Under the pieces are notes generated by a model, which was not told where the DNA came from, did not search any database, and worked only from the letters and a program-made list of their open reading frames with translations. Source: Candidatus Sigynarchaeum calidifontis (GTDB lineage Archaea; Asgardarchaeota; Lokiarchaeia; Sigyniarchaeales; Sigyniarchaeaceae). From it: 15,125 nucleotides of DNA. The position numbers and the translations under genes were made by a program. The number at the start of each line of letters is the position of its first letter. Position 1 is the first letter of the stretch. The stretch spans positions 1 through 15,125 of the forward strand of contig JAUQYZ020000249.1 of NCBI GenBank assembly GCA_030587475.2. Reading direction: 5' to 3'. Below, piece by piece: positions 1,098 through 15,125 of this stretch.

Positions 1098-2111
1098 ATG
1101 ACACTCAAGGATAATCAGCACATCCATTCAAGTGTGTATGACATGGTAACGTCCAAGAAACACCCGGCCACGAACAATAAACTTGTCGGAAAGCCCGACG
1201 ATAATATTAATCCCGATTTCGACGAGCCGGCGTGTTGTGAACAGCCGGATATCTTCGTGACAGTCGAAGGGAATGTCGTGTGCCGGCATTGCGGCTCGTG
1301 CTTTGGATCCCAGCTCGTGGAAAACGAGCGGCGGGCCTACACGGTCGACGAGCTCAAGAATCGCAAGCGCACGGAGCCCGTGTGGCGCACGTTCGGCCCG
1401 CGGACAGTCATGAGCGCCATCAAGAACGATTCTAAAGGCAATTCCCTACCCCCGGCGAAGCAAGCGCTGTTTGCCCGCTTGTCCAAGATCCAGGGCTCCC
1501 TCATCTCCTCGATCGAGCGCAATTACTGGGAAGCCAAGCCGAAACTGCAGGCGTTTGCTCACAAGCTCGGCGTGCCCGATCACATCATCGAAACGGCGTG
1601 GAAGATCTACTCGGAGGTCGCCAAGCAGAAGCTCACGATGGGCCGCTCGATCCAGGCCTTCACCGCCGCGAGCCTCTACGCGGCAATTCGCATCCACAAC
1701 TTCCCGCGCCTGCTCGAGGAGGTCGTCGACACGTCGACCGTCTCGACCAGGAAAGTACACCAGTCGCTAGGCATGATATTGCGCAGCGTGCTGCCCAAGC
1801 TCGATTACATGTACCGGCCCATCACGCCCCGGTCGCTCGTCTTCCGGTTCGGTAACGACCTCGATTTATCCATCAGCATCCAGAAACAAGCAGCCGATCT
1901 CCTCCACGAGGCCGCGAAGGGAGGCATGACCCGCATCGGCAAGGATCCGAAGGGCCTTGCCGCCGCGGCGCTTTACATCATCGCAAAAAAGACCGCGGAG
2001 AAGAAAACGCAGACGAACTTTGCAGATGTCGCCCGCATCACGGAGGTGACCCTCCGAACGAGGGTCAAGGAGATCCTCAAGCACGTCAAAAACGGTAGCA
2101 GCTATTATTGA
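1098..2111 (+). CDS. tfb: Transcription initiation factor IIB (TFB) family protein, probably a paralog
   Basis: N-terminal Zn ribbon (CCEQP...VVCRHCG), an E-R-R-A-Y B-reader-like segment, and two cyclin repeats with GRS...AASLYAAIR and GKDPKGLAAAALY...ITEVTLRTR. The start could be the later Met at 1143. Confidence 0.92.
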   Translation: MTLKDNQHIHSSVYDMVTSKKHPATNNKLVGKPDDNINPDFDEPACCEQPDIFVTVEGNVVCRHCGSCFGSQLVENERRAYTVDELKNRKRTEPVWRTFGPRTVMSAIKNDSKGNSLPPAKQALFARLSKIQGSLISSIERNYWEAKPKLQAFAHKLGVPDHIIETAWKIYSEVAKQKLTMGRSIQAFTAASLYAAIRIHNFPRLLEEVVDTSTVSTRKVHQSLGMILRSVLPKLDYMYRPITPRSLVFRFGNDLDLSISIQKQAADLLHEAAKGGMTRIGKDPKGLAAAALYIIAKKTAEKKTQTNFADVARITEVTLRTRVKEILKHVKNGSSYY

Positions 2112-6382: not shown

Positions 6383-6402
6383 GAGAAAAAAGAATTTAAA
6401 TG
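6383..6402 (+). promoter_or_regulatory. Candidate BRE/TATA promoter for the 6477-9894 gene run
   Basis: Purine-rich GAGAAAAAAGAA directly followed by TTTAAATG (6395-6402), about 75 nt before ATG 6477. Confidence 0.5.
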
Positions 6403-6476
6403 CGCAAGGTTTGGTTTGAATACGCGCGTGGAATGTTCATACTTGCTACAAAACGCAGAGACGAGCTTGTTTCGCA

Positions 6477-7220
6477 ATGAACCAGAAAGACAAGATCAAC
6501 ATCTATAAAGCCGTCCCCTTGCTTTTTGCATTTACATTCGCGTTGATTTTGTTTGTTTTCTTCTTCTGCGTGAAAGAAACGATCTCGGCCCTGCCCTTGT
6601 TTGCAAGCTACATCGACGCGGGCAATTCTGTTTTCCTCCCGTTCATTCCACGGGTTAATCTGCTGTTTTTCTTGCCGGAGTCGGCTCAAGTCTTGCCGTT
6701 CACCATCGGACATTTAATCGATTTCATAATTATCGTGAATCTTATCGTGGTGGTTAACCCGGTCGCGTATCCATATTACAAGAAGATCAGCAACGAGTAC
6801 CAATACAACCAGTTCTATGATTTGTATGTTGGATACTCTCATTCCTTGCAGAAAGAGCCTCAAATCTTGCTCGACATCGATCCCATGATCCTCGTGAACC
6901 GCCAATGCGTGTTCGATGATTTGAAGGAGCTCGAATCGGGGCACGTGTCAATGCAACCGGGAACAATCGATGAACAATTGGTCCACCACGATGCCACGGA
7001 TAAGCACGCCGTCCGATTCGTCGAGCCGCCGGGGTCAAGGCAGCTGCAATCAACCATATGCTTTCATCCAGCACCGGATGTCCCACGCTCTTCCTCGTTG
7101 CACCGAACTCGTGCGATATTTCTTGGATATGGACGGAATGGAACGCGATCCCGCGTTGCACGCGCTGTTTTTACATTGCTCTTTTCATTGATACCGATAT
7201 TTTGTTCGAGGCATCGATAA
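6477..7220 (+). CDS. Hypothetical membrane protein, copy A (paralog of 13840-14595)
   Basis: Hydrophobic N-terminal segments. Residues 40-87 align without gaps to the same residues of 13840-14595 (22/48 identical by manual count). Stop TAA 7218-7220 overlaps the next ATG. Confidence 0.75.
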   Translation: MNQKDKINIYKAVPLLFAFTFALILFVFFFCVKETISALPLFASYIDAGNSVFLPFIPRVNLLFFLPESAQVLPFTIGHLIDFIIIVNLIVVVNPVAYPYYKKISNEYQYNQFYDLYVGYSHSLQKEPQILLDIDPMILVNRQCVFDDLKELESGHVSMQPGTIDEQLVHHDATDKHAVRFVEPPGSRQLQSTICFHPAPDVPRSSSLHRTRAIFLGYGRNGTRSRVARAVFTLLFSLIPIFCSRHR

Positions 7221-8422
7221 TGACCCAAGAAGAAACCTTCATGGCAGACTTGAAAGAAACCGTCAAAGGAACGGCCAGGGATTGCAAGGTATATGGCGAT
7301 CTCTGTAAGAAACAAGAATACGACCTGGACAAGACGATCACAGATGCTACCCTTCAGGATATCCCGTACATCAACTGGCAACACTTCAAGATGTCCAACC
7401 AGCTATACCACGAGCTCTTGCGCATTCCCATCGACCAGATCGCCTACTGGACGCTGAGCAGCAGCTCGACTGGTGACCCGTCCCTCGTGGGCCGCGTGGG
7501 AAAGGATGTCGAGGTGTTTCGGGAAAATTATCGTAAGGGCTTCGAGGAGTACGCGAAGATGAAGACGTTGAAGCGGCTCATCCTCTTCGCGCCCTCTCTC
7601 AAGTTCTTGAACCATGTACGCGTTAGAGCCATGGGAAAACCAGGATTCCTCTTTTACCGGGACATCACGACCATTTGGGATGGCTTCCAGACCGACTTCT
7701 TGCTCCAGTTCAAGATGTTGAAGGCGATAGCATACTTGCTAACACACTTCAAGCCCAAGGCTTTCATCGAGATCAATGGCAGCCAGTTCGAGAAAGCCTT
7801 GAAGAGCGTGGAGAAGGAGAAGACCCCCACGCTCATGGCGAATTCCGTACCCCTTATCTACATGAACGTGATGGACCTTATTAAAAAGCGGAAGGGTGTC
7901 GGCTATGCGATGGAACCGACGTTTCGAGTGCACACGGGCGGTGGCGGGTGGAGCGGCGTGAAGGGCACCGTGAAGCTGGACAAGCCCATTGAAAAAGCGG
8001 AATTCTTCGAGAAGATTGGCAATTTTTTCAACATCCCCATCGAGAATTTCAGCGACACGTTCGGCGCGACCGAAACGCCCATATGCTGCGGCGGGCACTG
8101 GAGCAAGAAATACAACGACATCGTCTTGCATCTCGACAAGATGCAGGCCCGAATGGTCATCAGGAACACCGAGTCTGGCGAGAGGATCAAGACGACCAAG
8201 GAACCTGGCCTGCTGGAGATCGTGACGCCTTACGGCGTGGACAGCTATGCCGGGGTAGCCGTGCTGCTTGATGACGTTGTGGAGATTCTCGACTTCAACC
8301 GGTGCGAGGAGTGCGGACGTGAAAACCTGGTCCTGTTCCGGATTGTCAAGAAATACACGCCGGAATCGGGAAAAGGCTGCACGTCGTTCACCGTGTATCG
8401 GCCCTTAAAAAAGAACAATTAA
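7220..8422 (+). CDS. LuxE/PaaK-like acyl-protein synthetase (adenylate-forming enzyme)
   Basis: P-loop-like LSSSSTG, TGGGGW, DTFGATE, EPGLLEIVTPY, SYAGVAVLLDD, CEECGR and C-terminal KGCT (LuxE-type GC). The probable start is ATG 7220 (MTQEETF) rather than 7058, which overlaps the upstream ORF. Confidence 0.78.
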   Translation: MTQEETFMADLKETVKGTARDCKVYGDLCKKQEYDLDKTITDATLQDIPYINWQHFKMSNQLYHELLRIPIDQIAYWTLSSSSTGDPSLVGRVGKDVEVFRENYRKGFEEYAKMKTLKRLILFAPSLKFLNHVRVRAMGKPGFLFYRDITTIWDGFQTDFLLQFKMLKAIAYLLTHFKPKAFIEINGSQFEKALKSVEKEKTPTLMANSVPLIYMNVMDLIKKRKGVGYAMEPTFRVHTGGGGWSGVKGTVKLDKPIEKAEFFEKIGNFFNIPIENFSDTFGATETPICCGGHWSKKYNDIVLHLDKMQARMVIRNTESGERIKTTKEPGLLEIVTPYGVDSYAGVAVLLDDVVEILDFNRCEECGRENLVLFRIVKKYTPESGKGCTSFTVYRPLKKNN

Positions 8423-8454
8423 GAGGTTTTTCATATCACGTACACGTGAAAAAA

Positions 8455-9894
8455 ATGGCAACCTTTCAACTTTCCGTGGCATACAACTGGGATCCGCGCC
8501 TCTTGGAAGAGGTCGTGAAAAACAAGTACCCCGTCAAGGATTTCTTCGCATCCGCGCAGCACACGGCCGTGGGGGGCGGCAGGCCCTCGTCGATCTTGCC
8601 GGAAACGAACGAGAAGATGATGAAACAGCAGATCAAGAAAATGCACGATAGCGGGATCGAGTTCTACTATACCATCAATGCACCATGCATGGCAGGCCAG
8701 GAATTCGTCCGCGAGACTCACGAGAAGATGTTGAAAGAGTTCGAGTGGATCCAGCTTATTGGCGCGGACGGTGTCGTGTTAGCGATCCCGTATCTCATCG
8801 AGCTCGTGAAGGAACAGTTCCCGAGGCTCAAGATCCGCGTTTCGACCGTGGCGAAGGTGAACACGGTCAACAAGGCCAAGTATTTTGAAGTACTCGGTGC
8901 TTCCAGCATCACTCCCGACGTGATGATCAACCGGAACTTCAAGGTGCTCGAAAAAATGGCAAAGGGAACGACTTGCGCGATCGACTTGATCGTCACGGAC
9001 GGCTGCTTGTTCGAGTGCCCGTTCAGGCTGTACCATTACACGCTCACGGGTCACGCGTCCCAATCTTACAGCAACCGGGAAGCTTACATCGACTATCCCA
9101 TACTCCGCTGCAATATCGAAAAATTCACGCACCCGGCAGAAGCCATGAAGTGCCGGTGGGTTCGTCCCGAGGATTTACGGCATTACGAGGCTGTCGGGAT
9201 CCATCAATTCAAGATCGGCGGCCGGCGGCTCACGACCGACATGATCCTCCGCTCCGTGAGGGCATATTCCGAACAAACATATAAAGGCAACCTCACGGAC
9301 ATCATCGAAGGTTTTAGCTTCGAGTACGGAGGTATCAAGGAGGATCCAAACAAAAAAATGGGGATGGTAAATGCCGGTGTAAATAATCCAGAGAACAAGG
9401 CTATATTAGTCATCGATAACACGAAGCTCGATGGATTCATCGATTTCTTCAAGAAACAAGATTGCGCGGCCAATTGCAATGAATGTACCTATTGTGAAAA
9501 CTGGGCGAAAAAAGCGATCACGGTAGACAAGGAAGGCGTGGAAATATTCTTGAGTTCTGTGCACGCATTCCATGATGATCTCATAACCAGCAGGGAATTC
9601 GGCCTCGGGAAAACGGAGTCACGCGAAGGCATGAAAAAAAAGAAGGATGGTATCGATTGGGATCCGCTCGCGAGAAAGAATTTCGACGAGATAATCAGCA
9701 GATCGCCTCCCGCGACCCGGGGCATGGCCCGCATGGTCATCGGTTCCCTTGCCGAGAAAAACGCGAAAAAACGAGGGGCCAGGAAGGTCGAGAACGATGA
9801 TGTTTCGATGGCATTCCTCACGGGCGTGCCGGGCCCCTTCCAGAAGGGCTTGAAGAGGGATTTGAAAGAACTCGGCATGAAGTACGAACTATAA
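8455..9894 (+). CDS. U32 'peptidase' family Fe-S protein with C-terminal Cys cluster and helical PCP_red/DUF2621-like tail
   Basis: GGGR, YYTINAPC, GADGVV, VSTVA, GCLFECPFR...RC, WVRPEDL and FKIGGR are U32-type motifs. A CAANCNECTYC cluster follows. Alternative GTG start at 8446. Confidence 0.88.
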   Translation: MATFQLSVAYNWDPRLLEEVVKNKYPVKDFFASAQHTAVGGGRPSSILPETNEKMMKQQIKKMHDSGIEFYYTINAPCMAGQEFVRETHEKMLKEFEWIQLIGADGVVLAIPYLIELVKEQFPRLKIRVSTVAKVNTVNKAKYFEVLGASSITPDVMINRNFKVLEKMAKGTTCAIDLIVTDGCLFECPFRLYHYTLTGHASQSYSNREAYIDYPILRCNIEKFTHPAEAMKCRWVRPEDLRHYEAVGIHQFKIGGRRLTTDMILRSVRAYSEQTYKGNLTDIIEGFSFEYGGIKEDPNKKMGMVNAGVNNPENKAILVIDNTKLDGFIDFFKKQDCAANCNECTYCENWAKKAITVDKEGVEIFLSSVHAFHDDLITSREFGLGKTESREGMKKKKDGIDWDPLARKNFDEIISRSPPATRGMARMVIGSLAEKNAKKRGARKVENDDVSMAFLTGVPGPFQKGLKRDLKELGMKYEL

Positions 9895-9914
9895 TCGACC
9901 CACTATTCCCAAAC

Positions 9915-9930
9915 TCTTAATTTCTTTTTG
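9915..9930 (+). terminator. Possible archaeal oligo-T terminator after the U32 gene
   Basis: TCTTAATTTCTTTTTG, about 20-35 nt after the stop. Confidence 0.3.
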
Positions 9931-9982
9931 AACGAATAACCTTCATTCGATACTCTTGTTGAACGAATGGGGCGATAACACC

Positions 9983-12850
9983 ATGCAAACTCGGAAATCA
10001 AGCGTTATGCTCGATGATGCTTGCTCGGGGCCCGTGGAAAGGATCGTGTCGCTATTGCAAACAGACATGGAAACCGGTTTGTCATCGAGCGAAGCAGCAG
10101 CTCGATATGCAGCTCTGGGGCCGAACGCAATACCAGAAGCAAAGATATCCCCGTGGAAGCTATACATCGCTCCTTTTATCGAGAACTGGCTCGTCATCAT
10201 CTACTTGATCGCGGGCATGTTACTCTTTGTGCTCAGCCTCGCTATAAACAAGATAGATTTCTCGGCGTTCACGTTCATTTTCGTCATTATCAATGCAATC
10301 CTCGCGATATTCCAGCAAGTCCGGGCACACAAGGCTTTGAAAGCACTTCGCCAACTCACGAGGGACAAATGCACGGTCATCCGGGATGGCCAGAAGGTCG
10401 AGATAGATGCGACCCAGATCGTCAAAGGGGACATCTTGAGCCTGCAAGAGGGCGACAAGATCGCAGCGGACGCGAGGCTATTTTTCGCCAACAGCTTGTT
10501 CATCAACGAGGCTTCGCTCACGGGCGAGAGCATTCCCGTCGAAAAGGATCCTGCGCCCTTGGATAATGCCGTTGCGGGCATCTCGGGCATGAAAAACATC
10601 GTGTTCATGGGTTCCTATGTCACGAAAGGCAATGGCAAGGCAATAGTGTTTGCAACTGGGCTGCAAACGGAGATGGGAAAGGTAGCGGGCGAACTGAGCA
10701 CGGCCAGCGATCAAGAAATCCCGTTGATCAAGAAAATTAATAAATTTGCCAAGTACCTCGGCATCCTCGTGTGTGTCATGTTCGCGGTCATTTGCACCTA
10801 TAACATCGCAAGGAATATCGTAGATCCATTTGGATCTCCCTTGGAAGTGCTGCGAGATTCAATAATTCGGGCAGTGCAATTTATGCCGATCAACATCATC
10901 TTGCTCGTGACCGTCATCTTATATACCGGCGTGCTCGCCCTGGCCAAGAAGGGTGTCATCGTGAGAAAACTTAGCGCGACAGAAGCGCTCGGGCGGATAT
11001 CGATCCTCTGCACGGACAAGACAGGAACCCTCACGCAAAACGAGATGACCGTGAAACATGTCTTCGTGGATGGGAAAATCTATGATATAACAGGCAGCGG
11101 GTATGTGCCCGAGGGGGAGATAATGATCGCGGGCAAGCCCTTGGGAAAAGATGCCTCTCCAGCCTTGCTTGCCTTGATGACAAGCGGGATGCTGAACGGG
11201 AACGTGGACCTGGTCGATGAGTCCAGAAAGGTAGCAGGCGGGCGCAAGAAGGTAAAGGTTACCCGCAAGGTGATTGGAGATCCCTTGGAGGCTGCCCTAC
11301 AAGTCCTGGCGGAAAAAGCAAGGATGGACAAGAAACAACTGCTTTCCCAGCTGGCACGCATCCGGGAGTTCCCGTTCGATTCTGACTTGAAACGGATGAC
11401 CACGGTCTACGCCATGGAAGGCAAAGACGTCAAGCCAAAGTGGAAAATATTCTCGAAAGGTGCCACGGAAATTATCCTCAAGTTATCTAGCATGATCGCA
11501 ACTGACGGCGGTTCTGTCCCGCTATCAGCACAACAACGCGACGAGATCATCTCGATCATGGAAACGTGGGCTGAAAAGGGATACCGCACACTCGGCATCG
11601 CATCGAGGGAGCTAGAAGGATTCAATGACGTGGCAAAGCTCGCGCGCGATGAAATCGAAAAGGATCTCGTGTTCCTTGGCTTCGTGATGATCACGGATCC
11701 GTTGCGGATTGGCGTTAAAAAAGCCGTAGAATCATGCGCGTCGGCCGGCATCAAGGTCATCATGGTGACTGGTGATCACCCACGAACCGCAAAGGCGATC
11801 GGCGCAGAACTCGGGATCTGGAAGGAAGGCGACAAGATAGTCGAAGGAAGCGAGATCAAGAATATCGAGAGCAAGGATATCGGTGACGTGTCGATCTACG
11901 CCCGTGTTGATCCTCGCGACAAGGATATCATCGTGCGACGGTACCAGGATCGTGGAACTGCCAACCGGGTGGTGGCCATGACCGGCGACGGCGTGAACGA
12001 CGCGCTCGCGCTCGGCATGGCAGATGTCGGTATCGCCATGGGAATCAGTGGCACTGCCATCGCCAAGGAGGCTGCAGACATGATCATCACGGACGACTCG
12101 TTCAACACGATCGAGCTCGGCATCAGGGAAGGGCGCGCGCTCTTTGCGAAAATCCGCACGATCATCTATTTTTTCATATATACCAACCTGATCGAGGCAT
12201 CTTTCCTTTTCTTGACTTCTTTCATTCCGGGTTTCGCGCTTCTTACGGCCATGCAAGTATACATGATAGTCGGCATGTCTCACGCGGTTCCACCCATGGG
12301 CCTCACGTTTGACAGAACTGCTTACGAGATAATGCAGGAACGACCGCGGAACGAGGAGGAAATATTCAACAAGAACACGCTATTACTCATGATCGTGCAC
12401 ATGGGCCTGCTCGTTGTTGGATTTCTCATTTCGTTGGGTTTAGTCTATCCGGCATACGCTGAGATCCATCAACGTCTCATTGACGGGATTATCGATGAAG
12501 AAGAATTTTCGGCGATGATGACGTATTCAGCACTTATCAACAAGCCACGCTCGGTTGCACTGGCGATCATCATGTCGATCGAGATCTTCACGATATTCTC
12601 GATCCGAAGGCCGAACCTCCCCGTCTGGAAAAGTTTCCGGCGCGATCTGGGACCGATCTTGTTGATGTTCACCGTTTTTGCTTATAGCAACTTCGTTGCA
12701 GCATATTACATCCCCTTCTTGGCATTCATATTCAATCTGGAGGTGTTAGGAGCGGGGGATTGGGCTCTGGCCATTATAATTGGCTTTGGTGCAGTCTTAG
12801 GGCTCGAGACCGCGAAGTGGCTCATCCGGAAGTACCGGGGCCCGTTTTAA
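9983..12850 (+). CDS. P-type ATPase, P2-like scaffold with atypical transport-site residues
   Basis: LTGES, phosphorylation motif DKTGT (11015), KGATE, MVTGD, MTGDGVNDA and about 10 hydrophobic helices. ATG 9983 is preferred over TTG 9956. Confidence 0.95.
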   Translation: MQTRKSSVMLDDACSGPVERIVSLLQTDMETGLSSSEAAARYAALGPNAIPEAKISPWKLYIAPFIENWLVIIYLIAGMLLFVLSLAINKIDFSAFTFIFVIINAILAIFQQVRAHKALKALRQLTRDKCTVIRDGQKVEIDATQIVKGDILSLQEGDKIAADARLFFANSLFINEASLTGESIPVEKDPAPLDNAVAGISGMKNIVFMGSYVTKGNGKAIVFATGLQTEMGKVAGELSTASDQEIPLIKKINKFAKYLGILVCVMFAVICTYNIARNIVDPFGSPLEVLRDSIIRAVQFMPINIILLVTVILYTGVLALAKKGVIVRKLSATEALGRISILCTDKTGTLTQNEMTVKHVFVDGKIYDITGSGYVPEGEIMIAGKPLGKDASPALLALMTSGMLNGNVDLVDESRKVAGGRKKVKVTRKVIGDPLEAALQVLAEKARMDKKQLLSQLARIREFPFDSDLKRMTTVYAMEGKDVKPKWKIFSKGATEIILKLSSMIATDGGSVPLSAQQRDEIISIMETWAEKGYRTLGIASRELEGFNDVAKLARDEIEKDLVFLGFVMITDPLRIGVKKAVESCASAGIKVIMVTGDHPRTAKAIGAELGIWKEGDKIVEGSEIKNIESKDIGDVSIYARVDPRDKDIIVRRYQDRGTANRVVAMTGDGVNDALALGMADVGIAMGISGTAIAKEAADMIITDDSFNTIELGIREGRALFAKIRTIIYFFIYTNLIEASFLFLTSFIPGFALLTAMQVYMIVGMSHAVPPMGLTFDRTAYEIMQERPRNEEEIFNKNTLLLMIVHMGLLVVGFLISLGLVYPAYAEIHQRLIDGIIDEEEFSAMMTYSALINKPRSVALAIIMSIEIFTIFSIRRPNLPVWKSFRRDLGPILLMFTVFAYSNFVAAYYIPFLAFIFNLEVLGAGDWALAIIIGFGAVLGLETAKWLIRKYRGPF

Positions 12851-13686
12851 ACCGATGTGGTTTTCCTTCTCCTTTCTTGCATTTTCCGCATGAGCTTCTT
12901 GAAAAGAAATGGTATCTCGAATCTCGCCGTGAACGGGGGTGGATATGCGAGGAACGTCTCGGGTATATCGCGCGCGATGTCTTCCACGAGCCACCGCCGG
13001 ACAGCGAGCGATAACAAGTTCCTGGGCAGGTGGCGGCGAGCGACCGGGTCCCAGAATCCCATCACGGCATCGGGCTCGGGCTCTTGTTTCATAAGCAAGG
13101 GGAAGTTCAAGATGGCCTGGCAGCCGGAGCCGCCAGGGGAGCGAACAAAGAGGTTATCATCGCGGTTGAAATGCAATAAATTGATCATCTTTGCCATGTC
13201 GTCGGGCATAACAAAGAAAAGAACGAACTCGATTTTTTGACTGTCAGGGATCTCCTTCAATCGTTGGAACACGATGTACTTGGTTCCAGCCGGGCGCTTG
13301 ACCGGGCCGGGATACTTGATGACGTGGGCTCCCCTTGCGGGGTTCTTTTTTAAATGCTCGCCGCGGCCACCAAAACAATCCCAACGGCCGCCAGTCGATA
13401 AGAACACCGTGATGCCGCGCGGCGGATACTTCGAAAACCCGGCCCACCACAAGCCACCAGGACAACCATGCCCCTCGGCCACGACGCTGGACTTGCCTTT
13501 CGCAGCGGCAGAGAACGCCATTCGTGGAAGACATCTATTGAATATGTTGGTTCCAAAACGCGCCTTTCCGATCCAGCGTGGTAACGTGTCAGAAAAGTAG
13601 ACGCCCAGGGGCTTGTACTTGAATTTCGCGTACTTGTCGAACAAGGCGGCGATCTCGGCGTTGTTCAAGCCTTTTTTTACAGACAT
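12847..13686 (-). CDS. DUF169 (COG2043-like) family protein
   Basis: PLGVYF, NRCL, GCPGGLWWAGF, SGCQ and MGFWDPVARR match the DUF169 pattern. Confidence 0.8.
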   Translation of the reverse strand: MSVKKGLNNAEIAALFDKYAKFKYKPLGVYFSDTLPRWIGKARFGTNIFNRCLPRMAFSAAAKGKSSVVAEGHGCPGGLWWAGFSKYPPRGITVFLSTGGRWDCFGGRGEHLKKNPARGAHVIKYPGPVKRPAGTKYIVFQRLKEIPDSQKIEFVLFFVMPDDMAKMINLLHFNRDDNLFVRSPGGSGCQAILNFPLLMKQEPEPDAVMGFWDPVARRHLPRNLLSLAVRRWLVEDIARDIPETFLAYPPPFTARFEIPFLFKKLMRKMQERRRKTTSV

Positions 13687-13711
13687 TTTCCTCGTAACTA
13701 ACGAACACGAT

Positions 13712-13719
13712 GATTTAAA
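13712..13719 (-). promoter_or_regulatory. Candidate TATA box for the DUF169 gene (near-leaderless transcript)
   Basis: Minus-strand TTTAAATC ends about 25 nt upstream of the ATG at 13686, the usual archaeal TATA-to-TSS distance. Confidence 0.5.
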
Positions 13720-13763
13720 CTTGGAACCCCAACTTGTGACGGTAAGGGGGCAGAGTAAGAGTG

Positions 13764-13771
13764 TTTTTAAT
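13764..13771 (+). promoter_or_regulatory. Candidate TATA box for the 13840 gene run
   Basis: TTTTTAAT about 70 nt before ATG 13840, similar to the spacing upstream of the paralog at 6477. Confidence 0.35.
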
Positions 13772-13839
13772 CCTAGCCGTTGATTCTAGCAAATAACGAT
13801 TCTATATCATGCCGGCATCAAGAACGCTAGGGAATTCAC

Positions 13840-14595
13840 ATGAAACGTGGCCAAGGAAAATTACAGCGGAAGGGCATCACCTCCTTGTCCATCATCACGA
13901 CGCCGGTGATAATCCTTGCTGGAATCCTTTGTCTCCTCATATCCCAGCAAGCAGGGCCATTAATATACGGAAAAATCGCGTCCGGCAGCTCGTTCTTCAT
14001 CCCGTCCATCCCGGCGATCAATTTATTCTATTTGTTTCCAGAAACCGTCTCCATGATGCCCTTCACACTCGGGAACCTCGTTGACCTGATCATCGATGTC
14101 TACATCGTATTGTCCATCGGGATCATCCCGTATCGATGGCAGAAAATCGCCAGGGAGCCGTGGGTCACCTTCGTGGACTTGCGGAGCCAGGGCTTGTTTG
14201 ACATCACCAACCCTCGATCCGTGTCCTACCCCGCCTCCGGTTCCGAAGCTTCGCAACGCCTGGCAAGGGTGATGGAAAAGGAAGCAATGCCACCGGGTGT
14301 CGCTCTCGCTGGCACGCCCAAGCTCGGGTATCACGAAAAGGCAATGGGCTCGAGAAATCGTGCCTTGCATACAGCGCAGCTTCCAAAGGATCAGCCGGCT
14401 CATAGAAATATAAAAGCGAATAATGGCGTGGTTGTTGCCTTCTTGTTTTTTTGCATATCGACAGGTTCGTTCTATCCTTGTTTGCGCGCATCGGAACCCG
14501 GCGCGCGTGATGTCCATCCTCTCTTTTTTAAGCAAAAATCGAATTATCGATGCTGTATAATCAAGCAACAAAATGAAAGGAAGGAGAAGAAATGA
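13840..14595 (+). CDS. Hypothetical membrane protein, copy B (paralog of 6477-7220)
   Basis: Shares the PL....I..G.S.F.P.IP..NL....PE.....PFT.G.L.D.II.V core at the same offset from Met1. Stop TGA 14593-14595 overlaps the next ATG (ATGA). Confidence 0.75.
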   Translation: MKRGQGKLQRKGITSLSIITTPVIILAGILCLLISQQAGPLIYGKIASGSSFFIPSIPAINLFYLFPETVSMMPFTLGNLVDLIIDVYIVLSIGIIPYRWQKIAREPWVTFVDLRSQGLFDITNPRSVSYPASGSEASQRLARVMEKEAMPPGVALAGTPKLGYHEKAMGSRNRALHTAQLPKDQPAHRNIKANNGVVVAFLFFCISTGSFYPCLRASEPGARDVHPLFFKQKSNYRCCIIKQQNERKEKK

Positions 14596-15125
14596 CACCA
14601 GACATTTTACGGTTTTCGTTCGAAATCGTTTTCCCAATAATATTACTAGTCTTGATCGTTTTGCTATTCCTGACAAGCATCAAGAACAAGCCGCCGAAGG
14701 ACACGGAATACATGTCCACGAAGGAATACATGAAAGAATGGATGCGAAGCCACGGCCAAGCACACGACCTTGACCGGATCGTCGAGGAGATCCAGCAGAA
14801 GGGGAATCCCTTCGGGTCGATATGGACGCCCATCGTCGTGAAGAACGCCAAGATATTCGGCAAGATGGGGCTGACGCCAAACAAGGTCTCGATAATGAGC
14901 GTCCTCCTCACGTTCTTGATCTTTTACCTTGCCATCATTGTCGGGCAACACCAACCAGGTGCAAACCCGATCGAGCGGCTCACGTTCGGGTTGCTCGCGA
15001 TCCCGGCAGCATTGCTCGTGCTCTATGCCGGTATAACGGACGGTGTTGATGGTGCACTCGCGACATTGCAGAAAAAGAAGTCGAAAAGCGGTGCTTGGGC
15101 AGATGGCGTGCTCGATCGCGTCAGC
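14592..15125 (+). CDS. CDP-alcohol phosphatidyltransferase family protein, 3'-truncated by the window (absent from the ORF track)
   Basis: Manual translation gives MTPDILRFSFEIVFPIILLVLIVLLFL...GLTPNKVS...TDGVDGALATLQKKKSKSGAWADGVLDRVS, containing TPN and the DxxDGxxA...GxxxDxxxD signature. AAGGAG lies just upstream of the ATG. Confidence 0.9.
   Translation, partial: MTPDILRFSFEIVFPIILLVLIVLLFLTSIKNKPPKDTEYMSTKEYMKEWMRSHGQAHDLDRIVEEIQQKGNPFGSIWTPIVVKNAKIFGKMGLTPNKVSIMSVLLTFLIFYLAIIVGQHQPGANPIERLTFGLLAIPAALLVLYAGITDGVDGALATLQKKKSKSGAWADGVLDRVS

Follow-up and report, generated by a model that had tools for sequence, protein, structure and literature searches.

An undescribed Asgard archaeal membrane-protein family encoded next to lipid-type enzyme genes

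Two open reading frames (ORFs) in a 15,125-nucleotide stretch of DNA from Candidatus Sigynarchaeum calidifontis (contig JAUQYZ020000249.1; hereafter the window) are copies of an undescribed membrane-protein family, found only in the window's order plus one genome of the same class, to which we give the name FAM. The family is real, as is its link to lipid-type genes, and neither has been described. Lokiarchaeales belong to the archaea most closely related to eukaryotes, and how their membranes are built and remodelled is an open question; in this regard, FAM is a lineage-specific marker protein for a patchy cluster of lipid-type enzymes. A first-pass annotation of the window had read the two ORFs as cis-acting leader or arrest proteins that regulate the lipid genes behind them. 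The sequences do not support such a mechanism for FAM, and the claim of an archaeal arrest peptide, tempting as it was, is removed here. The reading that we favour, tentatively and at somewhat less than an even chance, is that FAM works in trans, as a membrane component of an accessory lipid or natural-product cluster specific to Lokiarchaeales.

Both ORFs are genuine (Table 1) and their proposed paralogy holds at the N-termini, where BLASTP aligned residues 11-116 with 35/106 identities (E 6e-17) and a recount of the ungapped segment over residues 40-87 returned exactly the 22/48 identities first reported. A third paralog, P0003 (232 amino acids), is encoded on contig C221 of the window's own genome (G000); there too the stop overlaps the next gene, which is LuxE-like and has a LuxC-like gene behind it. 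An N-domain profile made from the three paralogs and run against a library of 1.84 billion proteins retrieved about 110 clusters at 50% identity. Because of this third paralog and these database clusters, the homology lies far beyond chance. Complete members have about 220-360 residues with the domain N-terminal in all of them, and full-length orthologs of the first window copy (P0001), equal to it in length, are 44-72% identical. The database homologs of the window FAM proteins are labelled 'Candidatus Lokiarchaeota archaeon'. According to our genome searches, FAM is present in 16/61 relatives of the window's order and in 22/301 genomes of a phylum sample, 21 of these 22 belonging to the window's order and the remaining one to the same class, with up to four paralogs per genome; about 225 genomes from 27 other families gave no match.

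The suggestion that this is an undescribed archaeal family is borne out by the database searches. No Pfam-A or NCBIfam model matched FAM, a profile search of the PDB gave nothing significant (best E 0.52), and the Atlas held no usable cluster match. Fold searches of the PDB, by which a distant fold could be missed, returned no hit with Foldseek and a best Z of 3.9 with VIA-align. Additionally, no description of the family or of its gene cluster was found in the literature. A candidate homology to PEN-2 (PF10251) was dismissed as noise: 5/93 members match with a best E of 0.0067, FAM scores E ~0.6 in whole-genome scans among many equal or better-scoring matches in stop-containing frames, the model also fires in 9/14 control genomes, and no match passes the cut-off. 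Fusions of the N-domain to known domains were also sought, with no length limit in the search, and none were found, the longest members having no Pfam domain.

Conservation in FAM falls on a folded N-terminal membrane domain of about 135 residues and not on a C-terminal motif. It is strongly conserved and consists of two long hydrophobic helices around a Pro/Phe-rich loop. Across an alignment of 93 sequences the second helix has an invariant Asp82, and Gly49, Ser51 and Phe53 are more than 90% conserved, with the consensus YIxSGxSxFxPxxPxINLxxFLPxxxQxxxFTxGxLIDxIIIxNI. AlphaFold2 places helices at residues 9-31, 33-48 and 77-109, with a predicted local distance difference test score (pLDDT) above 90 for the loop 49-76 and of 92-96 for residues 41-80; the tail scores about 50 apart from a short helix at 224-236. 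The positive-inside rule predicts a cytoplasmic location for both the N-terminus and the tail, and an outward-facing conserved loop.

The tail behind this domain is 110-220 residues long and has no family-wide consensus in the 93-sequence alignment. It evolves 3-7 times faster than the N-domain, and the ratio of non-synonymous to synonymous substitution rates (dN/dS) was 0.40-0.85 in the tail versus 0.11-0.30 in the N-domain in 4/5 close pairs (0.79 and 0.11, respectively, for P0001), values that are rough, dS being partly saturated. Identity between the window's genome and the congeneric genome G001 is 53% and 43% for the FAM proteins (copies 1 and 2) and 75-89% for the neighbouring LuxE-like, CDP-alcohol transferase, DUF169 and P-type ATPase proteins. 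The tail's own reading frame contains 0 stops in 28 loci, compared with 229-439 in each of the other five frames, and shuffling of AT-rich tails left 0/2000 open per tail. These counts led us to conclude that the tail is translated, to reject it as a non-coding run-on, open as it is in 28/28 loci, and to reject a hidden overlapping gene or RNA beneath it, the FAM frame alone being open. Most tails are basic (median net charge +8; 87% positive) and their composition follows genome GC. Homology between tails is confined to ortholog groups, with 15 of the P0001 type, nine of the type of the second window copy (P0002), five of the P0003 type and 40 in an AT-rich group. Three features recur across the groups: a DL just past the domain, an LxD close to residue 133, and a hydrophobic patch rich in Phe. 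Within the P0001 group a TRSRxAxAxF pattern is loosely kept. Pfam searches of the tail found no recognisable DNA-binding, RNA-binding or signalling domain. The idea that tails are matched to the type of the downstream enzyme was rejected, tail similarity tracking lineage and ortholog group.

The link to lipid-type enzyme genes, first noticed in the window, extends to other FAM loci. FAM usually stands directly upstream of a cluster enzyme gene, with a same-strand gene within 400 nucleotides (nt) downstream in 28/28 loci and a gap of -14 to +231 nt in 26 of them. As determined from Pfam tallies (10 members scanned singly) and BLAST clustering, this next gene encodes a radical S-adenosylmethionine (SAM)-SPASM protein, a CDP-alcohol transferase, a LuxE-like enzyme, or a GT2, U32-like, MFS or SCP2-like protein. 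Clusters of AT-rich genera run B12-radical SAM, FAM, two radical SAM-SPASM genes (AhbD/NirJ-like), a second B12-radical SAM and an ABBA prenyltransferase (PTase_Orf2), with U32-like, CDP-alcohol transferase, GT2 and LuxE genes close by; the second B12-radical SAM matches TIGR04072 ('lipid biosynthesis') at E 4e-81, below the cut-off. The GC-rich family has three units, namely DUF169 divergent from FAM-CDP-alcohol transferase-GT2, FAM-LuxE-LuxC, and FAM-LuxE-U32-like-P-type ATPase, and two of the three are represented in the window. FAM-marked clusters span 15-25 kb and are patchily distributed.

Several enzymes of the cluster carry a further element, an all-helical domain of about 85 residues (MEWxxExExLF...PExFRxSVxPML...ITPEAFQP...LGID) that we call MEW. 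It is common to the radical SAM-SPASM proteins and the ABBA prenyltransferase, where it is N-terminal, and to the U32-like proteins, where it is C-terminal. Its AlphaFold2 model has a pLDDT of 91. Pfam gave DUF2621 and PCP_red below threshold only, and the domain is not PqqD-like; a fold could not be assigned, structural matches being generic helical bundles (best Z 8.1 for an AAA+-lid-like domain and 6.1 for 2L09). MEW appears to be a previously unnoted, docking-like domain. Among the 61 relatives, which are not independent so that co-occurrence is given as counts alone, MEW is found in 16 genomes, 14 of them with FAM, and the prenyltransferase in 12, 10 of them with FAM; one genome (G003) has FAM without MEW. 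Since MEW and the prenyltransferase track FAM among these relatives, FAM belongs to an accessory system that is patchy in distribution and lipid-type in theme.

The lipid theme is further suggested by comparison with archaeal tetraether-lipid radical SAM systems (Gms, Tes and GrsA/B; PMC11186832), because lipid enzymes of the Gms radical SAM-SPASM type occur in archaea and have homologs in Asgard (PMC11186832), and the radical SAM-SPASM proteins next to FAM are AhbD/NirJ/Gms-like in type. In a text search of that paper the terms 'membrane protein' and 'operon' were absent.

The arrangement of individual loci bears on how FAM could act. The genome G032 has a full cluster with a single FAM (L055, G032:C27:169000-183000, and L052), in the order B12-radical SAM, FAM, two radical SAM-SPASM, B12-radical SAM, prenyltransferase, two U32-like and two zinc-ribbon proteins. 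The opposite strand carries a CDP-alcohol transferase-GT2-LuxE operon that FAM does not precede; a divergent spacer of 206 nt is all that lies before it, and this transferase is of the window's type (35% identity over the full length, E 5e-75). One FAM copy can thus serve an entire cluster. The earlier expectation that FAM is always the first gene of its operon fails in three loci: in L016 the stop of a CDP-alcohol transferase overlaps the FAM start, placing FAM in mid-operon, and FAM follows same-strand genes in L036 (LuxE-LuxC-FAM-MFS) and in L053 (G038:C47:1-16500). The latter has three tandem FAM genes on one strand (283, 334 and 329 amino acids), each followed by a GT2 or CDP-alcohol transferase gene, and because their tails are mutually 36-52% identical the arrangement suggests a recent duplication of the module. 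In the N-domain tree paralogs group by lineage and not by partner, with 11 label changes against a minimum of six, and the notion that N-domain paralogs track enzyme type was rejected on this count. It follows that FAM has either undergone repeated duplication and re-pairing or been homogenised by gene conversion.

Both stop/start overlaps described for the window are present: TAATG at 7218-7222 leads into the LuxE-like gene and ATGA at 14592-14595 into the CDP-alcohol phosphatidyltransferase. As a family trait the overlap stands only for the GC-rich families, to which it is confined. In the AT-rich family it does not hold, FAM being followed by spacers mostly of 46-176 nt (4-396 nt overall), many of which contain T-runs and TATA-like elements, and the next gene is preceded by a GGTG-type Shine-Dalgarno sequence of its own. 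Within the 3' end of FAM copy 1 a GAGG lies 9 nt before the LuxE-like start, and within that of copy 2 AGGAGAAG lies 2 nt (GGAG 6 nt) before the CDP-alcohol phosphatidyltransferase ATG. The extreme C-terminal residues, RHR in the P0001 group and EG in others, are kept and coincide with this GAGG/GGAGG; their conservation would reflect, at the nucleotide level, a Shine-Dalgarno-like sequence for the next start. RNA folds of three stop/start junctions compared with shuffles gave z scores of -0.48, +0.44 and +0.52, and no stable conserved hairpin was seen in these three junctions, where weak structures could escape detection. The TATA-like block reported before each copy was also found, about 70-85 nt upstream of each FAM ATG and kept in orthologous loci, which is consistent with a promoter; the core of the P0001-type block is GAGAAAAAAGAwTTTAAA (~6383-6402) and that of the P0002-type block GTTTwTAA (~13762-13770).

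A separate observation concerns seven AT-rich loci (L016, L039, L041, L043, L044, L051 and L052). In the 0-110 nt past the FAM stop, several of them have a GGAGGGA-TAA-nn-ATG or ATGA overlap, and these FAM ends are followed by a candidate small ORF of 22-37 codons and then by the radical SAM gene. The encoded peptides are low-complexity and not conserved, and such ORFs were rejected as conserved precursors for their inconsistency and low complexity.

Under our favoured reading of FAM as a trans-acting membrane component, the conserved hairpin would be the membrane-embedded part and the cluster enzymes would be held or organised at the membrane by the cytoplasmic tail, while the stop/start overlap would ensure matched co-production with the enzymes through ordinary operon coupling and not through regulation by stalling. 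FAM, the cluster it marks and the shared docking-like domain together offer a handle on a putative pathway for membrane lipids or natural products in Asgard archaea. Operons are known in which enzymes are encoded together with small accessory membrane subunits, as in the GtrA-type partners of GT2. Like these, FAM is a small membrane protein whose gene is co-transcribed and translationally coupled with those of membrane-associated biosynthetic enzymes; it differs in having no homology to any Pfam family, in pairing with unrelated folds and in its long, fast-evolving tail.

Several points weigh against this reading. The physical or functional interaction between FAM and the enzymes is one that we infer. 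The genes that directly follow FAM encode proteins of unrelated folds (adenylating enzymes, radical SAM enzymes and integral-membrane transferases), an odd pattern if FAM were a dedicated subunit. The N-domain tree follows lineage and the tails follow ortholog group, and therefore no partner-specific co-evolution is seen. In addition, the most conserved residues (loop 49-76 and Asp82) are predicted by the positive-inside rule to lie outside, away from the cytoplasmic enzymes. Lastly, a simple anchor would not ordinarily keep a near-neutral tail open over 110-220 codons. This tail, the grouping of N-domain paralogs by lineage and the placement of one upstream gene before different enzymes leave some room for three minority readings: a RiPP-like scaffold, a translational device and a trans-acting sensor.

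It is unlikely, in our estimate, that FAM is instead the substrate of the cluster, in the manner of ribosomally synthesised peptides that carry post-translational modifications (RiPPs). The N-domain would then be a membrane-anchored leader and the hypervariable tail the core, and the cluster enzymes would dock via MEW and tailor the tail, which would be cross-linked, methylated, prenylated, glycosylated or lipidated. If true, this would mean a protein-templated pathway in Asgard archaea. A conserved N-part with a hypervariable C-part and up to four paralogs per genome fit such a scheme, as do neighbours of peptide-tailoring type (two radical SAM-SPASM proteins, a B12-radical SAM, an ABBA prenyltransferase and a GT2) and the sharing of one ~85-residue domain by three enzyme classes, with FAM in 14 of the 16 MEW genomes. 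Long-leader RiPP precursors (NHLP/Nif11 and proteusins) likewise have a conserved N-part, a hypervariable C-part, several paralogs and similar tailoring-enzyme neighbours. The likeness is one of architecture only, and there is no sequence similarity. FAM has a hydrophobic 'leader' embedded in the membrane and a 'core' of 110-220 residues, and to our knowledge there is no precedent for a hydrophobic leader of ~135 residues joined to a core of that size. Neither the 93-sequence consensus nor the tail consensus reveals a conserved GG/GA cleavage site or a pattern of modifiable residues, and the helical MEW, with its sub-threshold DUF2621/PCP_red likeness, is not a PqqD-like RiPP recognition element. 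Moreover, G003 has FAM and no MEW, and the CDP-alcohol transferase, LuxE/LuxC, SCP2 and TIGR04072-like enzymes point to lipid chemistry.

A purely translational role seems improbable to us. Here a membrane-targeted nascent chain would be translated through to the next start, thereby tethering the polycistronic mRNA and its ribosome at the membrane and feeding ribosomes to the enzyme gene, so that the tail sequence would be nearly free. The open tail in all 28 loci, its dN/dS of up to 0.85, a composition that tracks genome GC, the Shine-Dalgarno-like sequences inside the FAM 3' end and the stops that overlap the next start would all be expected of such a device. However, the strongly conserved loop and Asp82 imply a specific function beyond targeting, the tails are homologous within groups and have a common DL...LxD start and F-rich patch, AT-rich lineages are uncoupled, and the G032 operon lacks FAM.

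We regard as similarly improbable a trans-acting membrane sensor or regulator, in which the outward loop would sense a cue from lipids or the envelope, with the basic tail signalling to the cytoplasm. The predicted topology, with N-terminus and tail inside and the most conserved residues outside, would suit this, and so would the basic tail and the patchy, cluster-linked distribution. Nevertheless the tail, in which no DNA-binding, RNA-binding or signalling domain can be recognised, shows poor conservation and a low-confidence model, and the stop/start overlap with the enzymes suggests stoichiometric co-production.

Least probable of all, and in our judgement very unlikely, is the cis-acting monitoring substrate of the first-pass annotation, in which membrane insertion of the N-domain would control arrest within the tail and hence expression of the downstream gene. 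FAM does resemble arrest peptides (SecM, MifM, VemP and the RAPP-type ApcA/ApdA/ApdP) in having an N-terminal membrane or targeting segment, a variable middle, and a gene placed directly upstream of an enzyme, overlapping it in GC-rich lineages. One upstream element before many genes of one theme is also typical of cis-regulators, and the tail stays open despite weak sequence constraint. The LGY-x6-SR-x(1-2)-RA motif put forward as the arrest signal does occur at the reported positions in both window proteins (Table 1), but it is unique to them among about 140 members even when the pattern is loosened; a 72%-identical ortholog of P0001 reads FNGHKRAGTRSRAARA at the motif position. RAPP, RAGP and PPP-type/polyproline motifs were absent from 137 tails. 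In SecM, MifM and VemP the C-terminal arrest motif is the conserved part, and FAM conservation is inverted with respect to them because its membrane domain is conserved and its tail is free. FAM also differs from arrest peptides in its length (226-334 residues), in being followed by varied enzymes and not by a paralog of the sensed machinery, in standing mid-operon in places (L016), in being dispensable in cis, as the orthologous-type G032 operon without FAM indicates, and in that no stable structure sequestering the ribosome-binding site was seen at three junctions, whose RNA folds are no more stable than shuffles. The T-runs, TATA-like elements and separate GGTG-type Shine-Dalgarno sequences of the AT-rich spacers likewise argue against control of the downstream gene by a stalled tail.

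Table 1. Positions of FAM genes, neighbouring genes and sequence elements; coordinates are those of the window unless a locus is named.
Feature	Position	Strand	Remarks
FAM copy 1 (P0001, 247 amino acids)	6477..7220	+	membrane domain ~residues 1-135 (6477-6881); fast-evolving basic tail 136-247
FAM copy 2 (P0002, 251 amino acids)	13840..14595	+	ortholog group of 9 tails
Motif copy 1, LGYGRNGTRSRVARA	7122..7166	+	missing from orthologs of P0001
Motif copy 2, LGYHEKAMGSRNRA	14323..14364	+	not kept in P0002 ortholog P0014
B recognition element (BRE)/TATA-like block before FAM copy 1	6383..6420	+	GAGAAAAAAGAwTTTAAAkGCkCAAGG kept in G000 and G001 ortholog locus; ~75-85 nt before the ATG
TATA-like block before FAM copy 2	13760..13775	+	GTTTwTAAyC kept in G000, G001 and G003
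LuxE-like acyl-adenylating enzyme, 400 amino acids	7220..8422	+	PF04443, E 1.9e-15; TAATG overlap with FAM stop
U32-family-like protein, 482 amino acids	8446..9894	+	partial Peptidase_U32 match; weak TrhP-like match; C-terminal MEW domain (~80 residues) 9652-9891
MEW domain	window 9652-9891; L043:5911-6180(-); L051:2815-3084(-)		others in alignment A7
P-type ATPase	9956..12850	+	E1-E2_ATPase, Cation_ATPase_N, Cation_ATPase_C; final gene of FAM-LuxE-U32-like unit
DUF169 gene	12847..13686	-	PF02596; divergent from FAM copy 2
CDP-alcohol phosphatidyltransferase, archaetidylinositol-phosphate-synthase-like	14592..15125, cut by window end	+	PF01066; ATGA overlap
TFIIB gene	1098-2111		archaeal marker in window

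An in-frame ATG at 7058, 54 codons upstream of the LuxE-like start and overlapping the FAM tail, was considered as an alternative start and rejected; it is probably not used, because the G001 ortholog (89% identical) is itself 400 amino acids long and starts 4 nt before the FAM stop, in agreement with a start at 7220. The U32-like proteins of the cluster, both in the window and in L055 (L055:1048-4536), match Peptidase_U32 only in part and TrhP only weakly. UbiU/UbiV and TrhP, relatives of these proteins, are oxygen-independent hydroxylases, and by this analogy the U32-like proteins may be anaerobic hydroxylases and not peptidases. A full-length ortholog of the window's CDP-alcohol phosphatidyltransferase matches NF040950, below the cut-off of that model. 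Furthermore, the P-type ATPase is syntenic in G001, and the DUF169 neighbour of FAM copy 2 is also present in G001, G003 and G005.

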